Origin: a virus
Lineage: Duplodnaviria > Heunggongvirae > Uroviricota > Caudoviricetes
DNA length: 64,000 nt
Reading direction: 5' to 3' (one strand)
IMG/VR virus record: IMGVR_UViG_3300046477_000062
Coordinates: 54,548 to 118,547 of that record
Position 1 is the first letter of the stretch, and the number at the start of each line of letters is the position of its first letter. This document shows, piece by piece, positions 1,668-9,981 of the stretch. A program made the position numbers and the translations under genes. The notes beneath the pieces were generated by a model. That model was given only the letters and a program-made list of their open reading frames with translations, did no database searches and had not been told where the DNA came from.

Positions 1668-3083
1668 ATGGAACGCATTGAAAAGACGATCCTGCAAGGT
1701 CTGATTTACAACGAAGACTACATGCGGAAGGTATTTCCTTTCCTGAAGCAAGAGTACTTCTCGGATCAGATTGATGGTCAGATGTACAAGACTATCTCAG
1801 GATTCATTTCGGAGTACAACAAGTGCCCGTCAAAAGAAGCCATCGAGATTTCGCTGCAAAATGATCGTGGTGTCGGAGAAGACACCTACGAGAACTGTAT
1901 CAATGAACTGAATGAGTATGTCCCTACAGATACCGTCAACGAATTCCTGATCAACGAGACGGAAAAGTTTTGCAAGGAACGCGCCGTCTACAATGCGATC
2001 ACCCGTTCGATCAATGTGATGGACGGCCGGGACCGCGAACTTGGTCCTGATGGTATCCCTCAGTTGCTTCAAGATGCGCTGGCGGTTGCGTTCAACAGCA
2101 ATGTCGGTCATGACTACTTCAACGACGCAGAGAAGCGGTTTGAGTTCTATAACCGCGAAGAAGAACGCATCCCGTTCCATCTGGACCTACTGAACAAGGT
2201 CACGAAGGGTGGACCGCCCAAGAAGACCCTGACGTGCGTGCTGGCCCCGACTGGCGCTGGTAAGTCGCTGTTCATGACGGATTGGGCGTCGTTCCTAGTG
2301 GCATCCGGTTTCAACGTCCTTTACATCACCTGTGAAATGGCGGAAGAACGCATCGCAGAACGTAATGACGCGAATCTGCTGGATGTTCCGCTGGACCAGT
2401 TGAAGAAGATGGACAAAGAGACATACATGGGTCGTATGTCGAAGATCACGTCCAAGACGCAAGGCCGGATGTTCATCAAGGAATATCCGACTTCATCGGC
2501 GCACGTTGGTCACTTCAAGGCGCTGCTGAACGAACTGAAGATCAAGCAGAAGTTTGTCCCCGACATCATCTTCGTGGACTACATCAACATTTGTTTGTCG
2601 CAACGATACAAGGCCGGTGGTAATGCCAACAGCTACACCATCGTCAAGGCCACGGCAGAAGAACTGCGCGGCATGGCGGTTGAATATGATGTGCCGGTCG
2701 TCACTGCCACTCAGGTTAATCGAGACGGTATGGACAATTCGGACATCGACATGACGAACACATCTGAATCAATGGGTCTGCCTATGTCGCTGGATATCTT
2801 CTTCGCGCTGATCCCAACAGAAGAACTAGAAAAGATGAACCAGATCATGATCAAGCAGTTGAAGAACCGGTTTGGCGACATCAACTACTTCAAGCGGTTC
2901 GTGGTTGGTATCGACCGATCAAAGATGCGGCTATACGACATCGAGACAAGTGCGCAAGACAACGTGATGAAAGATGCGGCAGAGAAAGAAGCAAAGTCGG
3001 CCTATGAGTCGGATGAATTCAAGGCGGCGATGACGAAGGCCAAACCTCGCACCGGATTCGACTTCGATTCGATTAAGTGGTAA
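1668..3083 (+). CDS. 41: gp41 replicative DNA helicase (DnaB family)
   Basis: DnaB-like Walker A LAPTGAGKS and ITCEM motifs; synteny. Confidence 0.9.
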   Translation: MERIEKTILQGLIYNEDYMRKVFPFLKQEYFSDQIDGQMYKTISGFISEYNKCPSKEAIEISLQNDRGVGEDTYENCINELNEYVPTDTVNEFLINETEKFCKERAVYNAITRSINVMDGRDRELGPDGIPQLLQDALAVAFNSNVGHDYFNDAEKRFEFYNREEERIPFHLDLLNKVTKGGPPKKTLTCVLAPTGAGKSLFMTDWASFLVASGFNVLYITCEMAEERIAERNDANLLDVPLDQLKKMDKETYMGRMSKITSKTQGRMFIKEYPTSSAHVGHFKALLNELKIKQKFVPDIIFVDYINICLSQRYKAGGNANSYTIVKATAEELRGMAVEYDVPVVTATQVNRDGMDNSDIDMTNTSESMGLPMSLDIFFALIPTEELEKMNQIMIKQLKNRFGDINYFKRFVVGIDRSKMRLYDIETSAQDNVMKDAAEKEAKSAYESDEFKAAMTKAKPRTGFDFDSIKW

Positions 3084-3119: not shown

Positions 3120-3794
3120 ATGCAACACGCGAAGAAAATAAACCGGCGCTTGAAGCCGTTATATGACACTCTGAGGGGTCGGCGCGACATCAGTCACGCT
3201 GATCTTCGAAAGCTGATCCAGACCGCCATACGCCCGTTTAAGGCCCGATGTGTGCTGTATGGTAAGCCTATCGCCAACGATGATGCCGGTATCAGTGGCG
3301 TGTTCCAACCCGAAGATCATCACTGGCCCATCAACATCGAAGTCCATGTGTCGAAGTACAGCGATAAACTGGTCCTATCCGACAGACTAGTCAAGCACAT
3401 GGTCTATGCGATCTTCCAATCCCTCTCGCACGAACTGATTCACAAGCACCAGTACCGGTATAGAGACGACCGCGCACCAATCGAGATGTACCTGTTGGGC
3501 GATGGCGCACCGATGACGGAACGCCAAGCGTATCTGGCTGAAGTAGATGAAATAGACGCCTACGCACATGACATTGCCGTCGATCTGTTCTTCAACTATC
3601 CCGGTAAGCATATGGACCATCTTCGAGATGGTCGCTACATGACTTCTCTGGCTTGGCAGATGTATGTCGAAGCCTTCCACGGCACTGACTGGAAGGACAT
3701 TCGCAACCGTCTGTACAAGAAGACCTACCAACATCTCACCCGGATTCGGGACAACCAAGAAGGATTCACATGTACGATCACTTTCTCTCGTTAG
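3120..3794 (+). CDS. putative zinc metallopeptidase (HExxH motif)
   Basis: HELIH motif at SLSHELIHKHQ; SD GGGAG upstream. Confidence 0.4.
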   Translation: MQHAKKINRRLKPLYDTLRGRRDISHADLRKLIQTAIRPFKARCVLYGKPIANDDAGISGVFQPEDHHWPINIEVHVSKYSDKLVLSDRLVKHMVYAIFQSLSHELIHKHQYRYRDDRAPIEMYLLGDGAPMTERQAYLAEVDEIDAYAHDIAVDLFFNYPGKHMDHLRDGRYMTSLAWQMYVEAFHGTDWKDIRNRLYKKTYQHLTRIRDNQEGFTCTITFSR

Positions 3795-3955
3795 CCGACT
3801 TGATTCAGCTTGTGCTGATGCTGGCCGCGTGCTACGCTTGCTACAGACGTGGGATTACTGTTGGAACAATCTCAACGTTGGAAAAGCTTGAACAGATGGG
3901 TGTTGTAAAGTTGCAACGTGAAGGCGACGACACGGAACAACAAGAAGAAAAGTAA
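3770..3955 (+). CDS. small membrane protein
   Basis: 61-aa ORF with a hydrophobic core. Confidence 0.3.
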   Translation: MYDHFLSLADLIQLVLMLAACYACYRRGITVGTISTLEKLEQMGVVKLQREGDDTEQQEEK

Positions 3956-3963
3956 AAAAGAAG

Positions 3964-3993
3964 TTGACCACGTTTGGGAATTCATGTACAATG
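3964..3993 (+). promoter_or_regulatory. sigma70-like early promoter (TTGACC-N17-TACAAT)
   Basis: Hexamers with the conserved spacer motif CGTTTGGGAATTC in inverted orientation; no ORF follows for about 280 nt. Confidence 0.55.
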
Positions 3994-4275
3994 TGGTTTC
4001 ACAGTTGATGATGTTGATCAACACCGGTTGTGGGAAATCCGGGCAAAATTCCTAATTGACTGTGGGCGTGGCGAAATTGGTAAACGCTACGTGATAGTAG
4101 GGTTCTACCGTGCGGCGGTAAAGCTACGCGGTTCAAGGAATCCGAGGCCATGTTGCCTTTGTGCTTGCGGGTTCAACTCCCGCCGTCCACACAACCGGGT
4201 AGAGCGAGCAATTACGCCAGTTATCGGGAACATGCGACCCTGACTACCCGAACTAAACCTGTAGATAAACTAAAG
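3994..4275 (+). ncRNA. candidate structured non-coding RNA or long leader with a tRNA-like T-arm
   Basis: Promoter-driven region without a credible CDS. GCGGG-TTCAACT-CCCGC T-arm at 4167..4183; GTGGGCG at 4062 pairs with CGTCCAC at 4184. No canonical cloverleaf could be folded. Confidence 0.25.
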
Positions 4276-4482
4276 ATGAAGAAGCAAGCAACCCAGAAGT
4301 CGAAGATCGAAGCAATCCTGCGCAAAGGCCGTCTCCTGACGCCGACGCAAGCGAAGTCGTATGGCATCACCAAGCCGTCCGCGCGTATCAGCGAACTGCG
4401 TGACGATGGTCTGAACGTGCAAAGCACCACGAACAAGTCGGGCAAGTTTGCATGGAAGTTGGGTACGCCCGCTTTCGCCTAA
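4276..4482 (+). CDS. small basic HTH-like DNA-binding protein
   Basis: 69 aa, lysine-rich; GITKPSARISELRDDGL resembles a helix-turn-helix. Confidence 0.4.
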   Translation: MKKQATQKSKIEAILRKGRLLTPTQAKSYGITKPSARISELRDDGLNVQSTTNKSGKFAWKLGTPAFA

Positions 4483-4578
4483 GCATCATCCTGCACTGAA
4501 CTGCGCCACAAGCGGACCTTTCCCAAACATCTACGCTTGTGGCGTGTGCGAACCCCTACATCAACTGAGAAATATCGA

Positions 4579-4986
4579 ATGCTGCATAATCTGTCGGTCG
4601 AAGAAGTTCAAAACAACGTCGCAAGCGAGACGAACATCGAAGTCCTTCGCAATGCGCTGATCCTCGCGAATCAACTGATCACGGCGCTGGATCAGACGGT
4701 CGTCTCACTTCTGGACGACCTTGAAGAAGCCCTCGAAGAAAACGAAGCACTGTTCGCTGATGCAGAACGCTATACGCTGGTGAAGTTCACGCTTCCGGCG
4801 ATGCTGGAAATCGCAACCAAGGCTGGCGCAAACAGCCCGCAGCTTGCAGAAGTGTTTGGTCGCCTGACGCCCGATACGCTTGATGAAGCACTGGACTCGG
4901 CAATCGCCCACGGCGCACTTGACGAACTTCGTGCAGCATACGAAGCTGATCAGGCAGAAGCGGCACAAGGTAGCCGCTTGGACTAA
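4579..4986 (+). CDS. acidic hypothetical protein
   Basis: ORF with a D/E-rich helical sequence. Confidence 0.4.
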   Translation: MLHNLSVEEVQNNVASETNIEVLRNALILANQLITALDQTVVSLLDDLEEALEENEALFADAERYTLVKFTLPAMLEIATKAGANSPQLAEVFGRLTPDTLDEALDSAIAHGALDELRAAYEADQAEAAQGSRLD

Positions 4987-8925: not shown

Positions 8926-9981
8926 ATGCTTTATATCGACGTGAAGTACGTCTCGTTCATCGCGAGTCGTCTTCCTCTGTTTACCAAGAAAGACGCGACA
9001 CTCTGGAACTTCCGGTGTCCCATCTGTCTCGATTCCCAGACCAATAAACGCAAGGCACGCGGCTACCTGTTCGCAAAGGAACAGAAGCTTATCTATGCTT
9101 GCCACAACTGCGGCGCGAGTATGTCGTTCGGGAAGTTCCTCGATTCCGTCGATCCGGTTCTCTACAGCGAGTATCGGCGCGAAGTCTACAAGGAAACGAA
9201 CGGCGGTCGAAGGGAAGTAAAGAAGGTAGAGAAAGAAGACGAAGATGAACTGATCAGGAATCTCGTAAAAACGGATACAGCGGCCCACTTCGGCAAGGAC
9301 GTAGCGGAACATCCCCCGACGCTTCTGGACGGCCTGATGGACCGTTTAGACCGTCTGCCGATCCATCATGAAGCTGTCCGGTATGTGAGGGACCGCCAGA
9401 TTCCGAAAGATCAGTACCACAAGATGTATTTCATCGGGAACATGCTGGACATCGTTCAACTGAGCGAGCGATATGAAGGACGCATCAGGACCGATGAACC
9501 GCGCATCGTTCTGCCGTTCTATGACACGAAAGGGCAGTTGACCGGCGTGACCTGTCGGGCCATCCGTGGCGAATCGTTGCGCTATGTGGTCGTGAAGGTC
9601 AAGGACGATGTTCCGCTGATATTCGGCATCAACGACATCGACCGGAACAAGCTGGTCTACATCGTGGAAGGTCCGATTGATTCGATGTTCGTTCCGAACT
9701 GCATTGCGGTTGGCGGTACGGGGATGCAGAAGGCGAAGTCTCTGGGCCTGAAAAATACCGTGACGATCTTCGACAATCAGCCGCGCAATAAGGACGTGTG
9801 TCGCCTTCAGGAACGGGCCATCGCGAACGGGGATAGGGTTGTCGTATGGAACCCGAGAGTGACCCAGAAGGACATCAACGACATGAAGAAGGACGGCGTT
9901 GATTACATGCATGAAATCGAATCCCGGACGTTTTCCGGGCTACAAGCAAAACTAGAATTCGACCGATGGAAGAAATGTTGA
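8926..9981 (+). CDS. 61: gp61 DNA primase
   Basis: N-terminal zinc ribbon CPIC...CHNCG; Toprim-like YIVEGPIDSMF; T4 synteny after 41. Confidence 0.85.
   Translation: MLYIDVKYVSFIASRLPLFTKKDATLWNFRCPICLDSQTNKRKARGYLFAKEQKLIYACHNCGASMSFGKFLDSVDPVLYSEYRREVYKETNGGRREVKKVEKEDEDELIRNLVKTDTAAHFGKDVAEHPPTLLDGLMDRLDRLPIHHEAVRYVRDRQIPKDQYHKMYFIGNMLDIVQLSERYEGRIRTDEPRIVLPFYDTKGQLTGVTCRAIRGESLRYVVVKVKDDVPLIFGINDIDRNKLVYIVEGPIDSMFVPNCIAVGGTGMQKAKSLGLKNTVTIFDNQPRNKDVCRLQERAIANGDRVVVWNPRVTQKDINDMKKDGVDYMHEIESRTFSGLQAKLEFDRWKKC

Follow-up and report, generated by a model that had tools for sequence, protein, structure and literature searches.

Phage tRNA genes are viewed as weapons against tRNA-cleaving host defences, a view that rests on ordinary-looking tRNAs. 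In tRNA punctuation, in the t-elements of plant mitochondria and in mascRNA, a tRNA-shaped module directs RNase P/Z cleavage within a longer transcript, and in the engineered “tRNA scaffold” a payload hairpin is carried in the anticodon arm with processing and stability retained. Phage T4 encodes species 1 RNA (rnaC, 139 nt, NC_000866), the role of which, to our knowledge, has never been established; its gene lies at the end of the T4 tRNA cluster. As for short tRNA introns or tRNA-like decoys in phages, the literature search yielded only the report of “enigmatic introns” in the tRNAs of Lak megaphages (Devoto et al. 2019, PMC6784885).

The locus described here is a real and conserved feature, and a new variant among phage tRNA-like or interrupted tRNA genes. 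It lies in a window of 64 kb, meaning the whole stretch of DNA that was analyzed, with a G+C content of 52% and most of its genes on the + strand. The source is a T4-like myovirus whose helicase is about 55% identical to cyanomyovirus helicases; among GenBank phages no close relative was found, either by blastn with positions 3900-4500 or by tblastn with the winged-helix (wHTH) protein. An original prediction, made from the letters alone, had proposed that positions 3994-4275 form a promoter-driven, non-coding region with a tRNA-like T-arm. The features on which the argument depends are as follows.

269-1381: UvsX-like recombinase gene
1668-3083: gp41-type helicase gene
3964-3992, + strand: sigma-70-type promoter, TTGACC (-35, 3964-3969), 17-nt spacer, TACAAT (-10, 3987-3992)
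3993-4061, + strand: 5′ leader with a small hairpin (GTTGAT, 4004-4009, pairing with ATCAAC, 4017-4022)
4062-4191, + strand: tRNA-like RNA of 130 nt, derived from tRNA-Leu (fold, parse, ARAGORN intron mode, model R1, covariation)
4062-4068 and 4184-4190, + strand: 7-bp acceptor stem, GTGGGCG with CGTCCAC
4069-4070, + strand: U8 and G9
4071-4087, + strand: D-arm, GCG-AAATTGGTAAA-CGC
4088, + strand: N26 (T26)
4089-4093 and 4149-4153, + strand: 5-bp anticodon stem, ACGTG with CATGT
4094-4148, + strand: 55-nt expansion replacing the 7-nt anticodon loop (arm fold z = -2.5)
4094-4099, + strand: 5′ strand of the internal loop, ATAGTA
4100-4143, + strand: variable inner hairpin
4144-4148, + strand: 3′ strand of the internal loop, GAGGC
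4154-4166, + strand: 13-nt variable region
4167-4183, + strand: T-arm, GCGGG-TTCAACT-CCCGC
4191, + strand: discriminator A
4196-4250, + strand: second small structured element, a closing stem plus two hairpins (RNAalifold, 4 sequences)
4276-4482, + strand: winged-helix (HTH_39) gene of 68 aa, the first downstream gene (Pfam PF14090, E = 4.7e-8)
8926-9981: gp61-type primase gene

The 130-nt element has the parts of a tRNA cloverleaf, namely a 7-bp acceptor stem, a D-arm with G18 G19, a 5-bp anticodon stem and a TTCRANN T-loop, and it departs from a canonical tRNA in the anticodon loop, where 55 nt instead of 7 separate the two strands of the anticodon stem. Its fold has a z score of -2.7 relative to shuffles. 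On the two strands of the 64 kb, a strict cloverleaf descriptor is matched at this site alone, and the covariance model R1 likewise has 4062-4191 as its single match in the window, at 72.5 bits. ARAGORN in default mode makes no call anywhere in the window, and in intron mode, a check proposed with the original prediction, its output at default stringency is a tRNA-Thr(AGT) that spans 4062-4192 and contains a 48-nt intron. In the companion check against Rfam, nothing in the window reaches a gathering threshold, and a permissive scan of 3900-4350 gives only chance-level matches and a match of the T-arm to tmRNA, but the Rfam tRNA model (RF00005, gathering threshold 29 bits) is passed by two orthologous copies, L001 at 40.2 bits and L003 at 41.6 bits, through local alignments that skip the middle; that model reports neither the window copy nor L002. 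The original prediction had placed the T-arm, the acceptor strands and the D-arm exactly where the parse puts them, had noted that the distance between the ends is too long for a standard tRNA, and had offered a tRNA with an insertion or a tRNA-derived RNA as one description, which is the right one for a cloverleaf with a 55-nt insert. Its outer boundaries held only in part: 4062-4191 and the small element at 4196-4250 are structured, but the stretch as a whole is not one structure. No other tRNA gene was found in the 64-kb window by ARAGORN in default mode or by the cloverleaf descriptor scan. A dispersed repeat and an antisense RNA were considered and rejected, since the window holds no second copy of the insert and the complementarity of the insert to other window sequence is at most 11-14 nt, which is chance level. 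The exact 25-mer comprising the T-arm and acceptor strand is absent from IMG/VR.

The claim that the region is promoter-driven was borne out. The TTGACC-17-TACAAT site, an early promoter, agrees with consensus at 10 of 12 positions and is the sole promoter-like site in 3700-4700; moreover, a TTGACC-17-TAYAAT promoter is kept in all 8 relatives described below, with 10-11 of 12 positions matching across loci (11 of 12 in L340 and L341). Judged from the sigma-70 promoters, the host is bacterial. The leader between promoter and element varies in length and content, its identity being 81% to L001, 68% to L002 and 26% to L003. No terminator-like site occurs in 3700-4700, and hence there is none between the tRNA-like element and the gene at 4276. 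The element and the winged-helix gene are likely co-transcribed, so that excision of the element could play a role in maturation of the winged-helix mRNA. For the second structured element, at 4196-4250, RNAalifold predicts 17 pairs, 4 of them with compensatory changes (4 sequences); in the window, L001 and L338 it follows the tRNA-like element, in L335 it precedes it, and L002 and L003 lack it. Sequence searches of the neighboring proteins in PHROGs, Pfam, NCBIfam and PDB gave no functional lead, and no conserved partner gene was found among the neighbors, which are without informative family matches.

Eight syntenic metagenome relatives keep the promoter, the tRNA-like element and the winged-helix gene, and the gene order is in all cases helicase, a 224-aa ORF, a small ORF, promoter, tRNA-like element and winged-helix gene; the synteny of the last two is thus kept in 9 of 9 loci when the window is counted. 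Three of the relatives (L001, L002 and L003) came from IMG/VR via the helicase and wHTH genes, and five (L335, L336, L338, L340 and L341) from exact look-ups of wHTH homologues. Model R1 detects the element in each, at 42-70 bits, with the match in L001 split in two by a long insert. Pattern scans of IMG/VR tailored to this family added no contig to the three already in the set, and a metagenome scan with the wHTH protein returned only distant loci, which have ordinary tRNAs. In two of these, L207 and L208, the distant homologue lies directly downstream of an ordinary tRNA cluster; the element therefore stands in what, in related phages, is a tRNA region.

The four cloverleaf stems and the elbow nucleotides (U8, A14, G18 G19, U54 U55 C56 and A58) are under purifying selection, and the inner hairpin is not. 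Pairs were counted on natural nucleotides only, in two trimmed alignments with artificial placeholders: A3, from which the inner arm was removed, and A4, in which GAAA stands instead. In the nine sequences the acceptor, D and T stems are 100% paired (135/135 cells), with double-sided changes at 5 of 7 acceptor pairs, 2 of 3 D pairs and 2 of 5 T pairs; position 1-72 is found as GC, AU, UA and CG. Slid-register controls, with the 3′ partners shifted by 1-3 columns, are 31-52% paired, and the observed covariation score was reached by 0 of 500 shuffles. The anticodon helix stands at 83% in the pair count because three A4 rows are mis-registered (N26 absent, or a different loop length); manual parses give compensatory versions of it, ACGTG/CATGT, CCTTG/CAGGG, CCTGA/TCGGG and TCTGG/CCGGA. 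Compared with L001-L003, the core is 65-88% identical in its two halves and only 28-37% in the segment between them, while other non-coding DNA ranges from 18% to 88% identity to the same three loci and falls to 18-30% in some pairs. The variable arm forms a small hairpin in most members, with compensatory CCC/GGG versus GGC/GCC stems and GNRA loops, and has been lost in L003 and L336.

The element descends from a tRNA-Leu gene, judging from its D-arm, elbow and best matches. The D-arm is of the classic tRNA-Leu type (GCGAAATTGGTAAACGC), and the 3-bp D-stem, A14 A15 G18 G19 A20a, U48 and the pairs G18:U55, G19:C56 and U54:A58 are all present; the Leu-type D-arm, U48 and the D/T tertiary-pair positions are invariant in A4. 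The best independent matches of R1 are tRNA-Leu, with the T4 tRNA-Leu at 68.9 bits and a tRNA-Leu(CAA) at L053 at 61.1 bits, and the model scores the T4 tRNA-Ser at 45.7 bits. What the element does not have is a Leu anticodon in a 7-nt loop: only the window and L001 carry GAG at the 3′ end of their inserts, where L002 and L003 have GAA. The features relevant to LeuRS other than A73, namely U8:A14, A15:U48, G18 G19, A20a and the D/T-loop pairs, are invariant, and a minimal tRNA-Leu without an anticodon arm is charged by LeuRS (PMC9976931). E. coli LeuRS, however, depends on A73 (PMC9976931), and the discriminator varies: it is A in 5 of 9 members, including the window copy, C in 3 and T in 1. 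Each of the three members with a C discriminator has G at position -1, and the -1 base is able to pair with N73 in 6 of 9. A leucine-charged mimic was considered as the conserved function and dropped when five added orthologues revealed C or T discriminators; given that variation and the requirement of LeuRS for A73, it cannot be the conserved function. For the window copy itself, a role as leucine acceptor is possible.

The insert that takes the place of the anticodon loop, 55 nt in the window and 24-59 nt in relatives, has an architecture of its own: in each expanded arm the anticodon stem leads through an internal loop to an inner hairpin. The internal loop, which is purine-rich and under selection, has the conserved strands WUAGUA and GRGGM in 7 of 9 members. 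The inner hairpin is hypervariable, with unrelated, unalignable versions of 10-48 nt, and in three members it is cut to a short capped stem: GGAAC-TTCG-GTTCC in L338, GGC-GAAA-GCC in L340, and GGGC-CTTGT-GCCC. L002 and L003 have different purine-rich loops without the conserved internal loop, and in neither does any junction restore a 7-nt loop with U33; their cores are nonetheless fully paired and carry the largest number of compensatory changes. It follows either that the internal loop is non-essential or that those two copies work differently. Known internal-loop motifs were also compared. A sarcin-ricin or loop-E motif (AGUA/GA) was considered but not adopted on account of GG in 3 of 7 members where the motif needs GA, and a kink-turn was rejected on account of a bulged strand without GA.

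Our preferred reading, to which we would give a probability of roughly 45% from comparative sequence evidence, is that the locus encodes a processed, stable, non-decoding tRNA mimic co-transcribed with an early mRNA. As encoded, the RNA cannot read codons, because the anticodon loop is replaced by the extension. The primary transcript would run from the leader through the tRNA-like RNA into the early mRNA. Excision of the element would fall to RNase P of the host, which would remove the leader, and to the enzymes that process tRNA 3′ ends, and these cuts would at the same time give the downstream mRNA its 5′ end. The locus does not encode CCA (4192-4194 are CAA), and its addition would have to follow excision. 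The released RNA would be a stable tRNA mimic that most likely occupies a protein or ribosomal site recognizing the L-shape of tRNA, where it would present the conserved internal loop; candidate partners are a defence nuclease that targets tRNAs, an enzyme that modifies or aminoacylates tRNA, or a phage factor. What favors a mimic over a decoder is, first, that two orthologues (L002 and L003) have a perfect core but no recoverable anticodon loop; second, that the positions relevant to identity (the discriminator and pairs 1-72 and 2-71) drift; and, third, that the arm has a conserved motif of its own and stable tetraloops cap the shortened arms.

One alternative, which we consider unlikely, is a decoding tRNA interrupted at or near position 37/38 by a short intron (14-52 nt across the family) that an undescribed bacterial cut-and-ligate pathway of phage or host would remove. 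From this perspective the ARAGORN intron-mode call is taken at face value, and the insert lengths fit typical tRNA intron sizes. U33 and A37 are preserved in the WUAGUA strand of 7 of 9 members; in those seven, removal of the inner hairpin together with GRGG leaves a formally canonical loop, W-U-AGU-A-M; alternatively, in the window and L001, the product would be AU/UU-GAG-GC/GA, that is, a tRNA-Leu(GAG), and CTT plus CTC make up 40% of the Leu codons in the window genes. There is also the precedent of the Lak introns, and in phage tRNA arrays a long Leu-type gene with CUU...AAAA flanks seemingly fills the tRNA-Leu(UAA) slot, as in L187. However, the host is bacterial, and we know of no bacterial splicing endonuclease for such introns. 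Nor is there a bulge-helix-bulge, since the arm has a single internal loop of 6 by 5 nt and not two 3-nt bulges 4 bp apart, and a group I intron would need a much longer insert than this one, which matches no ribozyme family (Rfam, E up to 10). Moreover, a Leu-type body with an A34 anticodon would combine an identity and a codon that do not belong together, and the free variation of the discriminator and first acceptor pairs is unusual for a tRNA holding one synthetase identity. A further difficulty is that the canonical loop fails in L002 and L003, which regenerate a U33 loop at no junction and yet keep a perfect core.

We attach a similarly low probability to the idea that the element is a cis-acting processing signal in the manner of tRNA punctuation, in which the sole selected role would be to recruit RNase P and a 3′ nuclease and so define the 5′ end of the winged-helix mRNA, the excised RNA being functionless. 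The arrangement is what this idea calls for, in that promoter, tRNA-like element and winged-helix gene follow one another without an intervening terminator in 9 of 9 loci and the distant wHTH homologues directly follow ordinary tRNA clusters (L207, L208). RNase P and RNase Z require little beyond the acceptor/T-arm minihelix and the elbow, and variation of the insert and the discriminator is expected if only nuclease substrates matter. But a bare processing signal leaves the compensation in the anticodon stem, the internal loop kept in 7 of 9 members and the tetraloop caps unexplained.

A decaying tRNA-Leu pseudogene, disrupted by an insertion and without present function, is in our judgment very unlikely. 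The window copy and L002 are missed by the Rfam tRNA model, the anticodon region diverges as much as the surrounding intergenic DNA, and the element has no companion tRNA genes in the 64-kb window; all of this would suit decay. Drift, however, would give mismatches, and what is found is full pairing at every acceptor, D and T stem cell with many double substitutions, at loci where the flanking non-coding DNA has meanwhile fallen to 18-30% identity in some pairs.

The last readings, as a tmRNA-like rescue RNA, a riboswitch-type leader or a coding ORF, we reject as having next to no probability: positions 347-363 of the Rfam tmRNA model align with the T-arm at 13.5 bits (gathering threshold 47), but the match is limited to those 17 nt, there is neither a tag frame nor a pseudoknot region, and ARAGORN makes no default call and only a spurious permuted call on the opposite strand at 70% stringency; the only riboswitch match, AdoCbl-II at 15.5 bits against a gathering threshold of 36.5 (E = 1.2), is at chance level, with no terminator or antiterminator before the gene; and an 89-codon ORF (3974-4243) spans the region, but it starts inside the promoter, the L001-L003 regions have stops in every frame, and length differences in relatives shift the frame. 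Hence the tmRNA-like option in the original prediction falls away, as does its regulatory leader in the riboswitch sense, and its judgment that the region is non-coding stands.

The design extends well beyond these nine loci. A class scan for a Leu-type D-arm with a T-arm 50-80 nt further on returned at least 120 loci in IMG/VR and at least 120 in a species-representative genome set, with acceptor pairing in 71 of the IMG/VR matches listed. Among 28 distinct long elements that were parsed, A73 is found in 26 and U48 in 27, and YT immediately precedes the insert in 17 while AA follows it in 15. Many long elements are recognized by the Rfam tRNA model, at 40-47 bits. In array-bearing phages such as L187, CUU...AAAA flanks suggest an interrupted tRNA-Leu(UAA) that would complete a Leu set beside Leu(TAG) and Leu(CAA). 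In bacterial-genome copies the arm is often a continuous hairpin of 16-19 bp with no anticodon (L304, L241, L250, L220), and the neighbors include an IS1595-type transposase, a phage integrase, DprA, AbiJ, PIN and HigB domains and a siphovirus gene. In the L092/L166 family the inner hairpin itself carries compensatory changes. Bacteroides phage BF1-TP2 contains a stretch with 99% identity to one version; the BF1-TP2 copy stands on its own amid recombination genes, with an annotation as a hypothetical protein of 54 aa. Tentatively, then, and with the balance of probability still against it, the window element may be one member of a widespread and essentially undescribed class of phage and mobile-element RNAs, in which the anticodon of a tRNA-Leu-type scaffold has given way to a hairpin or structured module and which would be either non-decoding decoys or adaptors in phage-host conflict, or a sign of short-tRNA-intron splicing by bacteria or their phages.

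The lesson of the locus is that the tRNA shape is under strong selection while the anticodon is replaced. Many unrelated phages, as well as prophages and islands of defence genes or mobile elements, share this design, which annotation routinely overlooks or records as small proteins. If the elements are mimics, they would constitute a new class of phage regulatory or anti-defence RNA, and nature would have its own version of the engineered “tRNA scaffold”; should they be spliced, there would be an undescribed route of tRNA splicing in bacteria or their phages. Either answer may bear on T4 stable RNA species 1.

Among known systems, the Lak genes are alike in being phage tRNA genes with the anticodon region interrupted by a short sequence that is not a group I intron, in being missed by bacterial tRNA finders and found in eukaryote or intron mode, and in having no known splicing mechanism. 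However, the Lak genes sit in large tRNA sets and are presumed decoders, whereas the window element stands by itself in a T4-like early region, two of its orthologues cannot regenerate an anticodon loop, and its arm has a conserved internal loop of its own. T4 species 1 RNA shares the length (about 130-140 nt), a canonical T-arm and an acceptor-like terminal pairing, but it has no Leu-type D-arm and its acceptor pairing is imperfect; R1 gives part of rnaC 19.4 bits, no better than an unrelated tRNA, and Rfam has no family for it. The class II tRNA-Leu is matched in the 3-bp D-stem and 11-nt loop, the elbow nucleotides, U48, the variable-arm hairpin of most members and, in the window, A73, and the element differs from it in the absent 7-nt loop and Leu anticodon, in the A73 that only some members retain, and in the variable arm missing from two of them.

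Like tmRNA and YrlA, the element would be a non-decoding RNA that keeps acceptor/T-arm or elbow geometry to engage tRNA-handling machinery. But tmRNA has no D-stem and has a tag ORF and pseudoknots, and in YrlA the ends of the RNA form the Ro-binding stem and a loop closes the acceptor-like stem, which is the reverse topology; apart from the T-arm there is no Rfam match to tmRNA or the YrlA family. The group I intron of cyanobacterial and plastid tRNA-Leu(UAA) likewise interrupts the anticodon loop of a tRNA-Leu in a bacterial setting, and many phage copies of the wider class are interrupted exactly where CUU|AAAA would split. Group I introns, however, exceed 200 nt, have a catalytic core and end in G, whereas the inserts here are 10-59 nt without a ribozyme match. 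Finally, the t-elements, mascRNA and the tRNA scaffold, with which the excision step and the payload arm would be shared, are eukaryotic, organellar or artificial, whereas here the same arrangement stands in a natural phage early transcript, with a conserved motif in the arm.

The window, a stretch of T4-like phage genome, has no canonical tRNA gene anywhere in positions 1-64000, and its sole tRNA-shaped sequence is the expanded tRNA-like element upstream of the winged-helix (wHTH) gene. Ordinary tRNA clusters are found at loci L207 and L208, where genes for Arg or His, Lys, Tyr and Glu tRNAs occupy 576-2279, immediately upstream of a distant wHTH homologue at 2501. Since these distant homologues lie directly 3′ of ordinary tRNA clusters, the linkage of tRNA genes to the wHTH gene predates the expanded element. 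The features of the window considered here are as follows.

4062 and 4191: first base of the acceptor stem and discriminator; the base 5′ of the stem (−1 base) can pair with the discriminator, as it can at the equivalent positions of the syntenic loci L335, L336, L338 and L340
4196-4250: second small structured RNA element, with a closing stem and two hairpins
4504-4544: inverted repeat whose 11-bp arms, CGCCACAAGCG ... CGCTTGTGGCG, match perfectly around a 19-nt loop

In 6 of the 9 family members the −1 base can pair with the discriminator (T-A, G-C or G-T), and for this reason the acceptor helix of the tRNA-like RNA may be 8 bp long, with RNase P perhaps cleaving one nucleotide further 5′ in part of the family. 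The second element, with 17 predicted pairs and compensatory changes in 4 of them, matches no Rfam family. In the window, L001 and L338 it directly follows the tRNA-like RNA on the 3′ side; its counterpart in L335 is upstream of that RNA, at 1125-1192, and L002 and L003 have none. The inverted repeat, between the stop codon of the wHTH gene and the next ORF, is followed by no T-run.

Long Leu-type tRNA-like genes (98-180 nt, with anticodon-loop inserts of 20-100 nt) occur on at least 120 IMG/VR viral contigs (L087-L206; for example L114, L145, L187, L111, L205, L101, L196, L202, L092, L166, L134 and L138). Several resemble tRNA-Leu(UAA), split as CUU|...|AAAA; L134 carries several in tandem, and L138 has additional long versions whose D-arms are not Leu-type. 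Among the matches listed, the same design is present in bacterial genomes (L213-L332; for example L304, L241, L250, L220, L296, L271, L228 and L236), where the copies often consist of Y-U-[perfect 13-17-bp hairpin]-A-A, without an anticodon. Their neighbors include transposase, integrase, AbiJ, PIN- and HigB-domain and prophage genes, which suggests that the bacterial copies are mobile-element or defence-island cargo.

The genes from cultured phages considered here are these.

L333 2501-2615 (PQ571263.1 3829-3943): 116-nt long tRNA-Leu-like gene of Bacteroides phage BF1-TP2
L086 2909-3047: T4 rnaC (species 1)
L086 3054-3172: T4 rnaD (species 2)

The BF1-TP2 gene, which the phage's annotation gives as gp8, a hypothetical protein of 54 aa, is solitary among Erf, NinB and RusA genes, and near-identical copies are found in about 10 IMG/VR contigs. 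Rfam has no family for either T4 stable RNA, and rnaD gave no significant fold. For T4 rnaC the fold has z = −4.6; this RNA carries a canonical T-arm, and the Leu-type covariance model matches it weakly and in part, at 19.4 bits.
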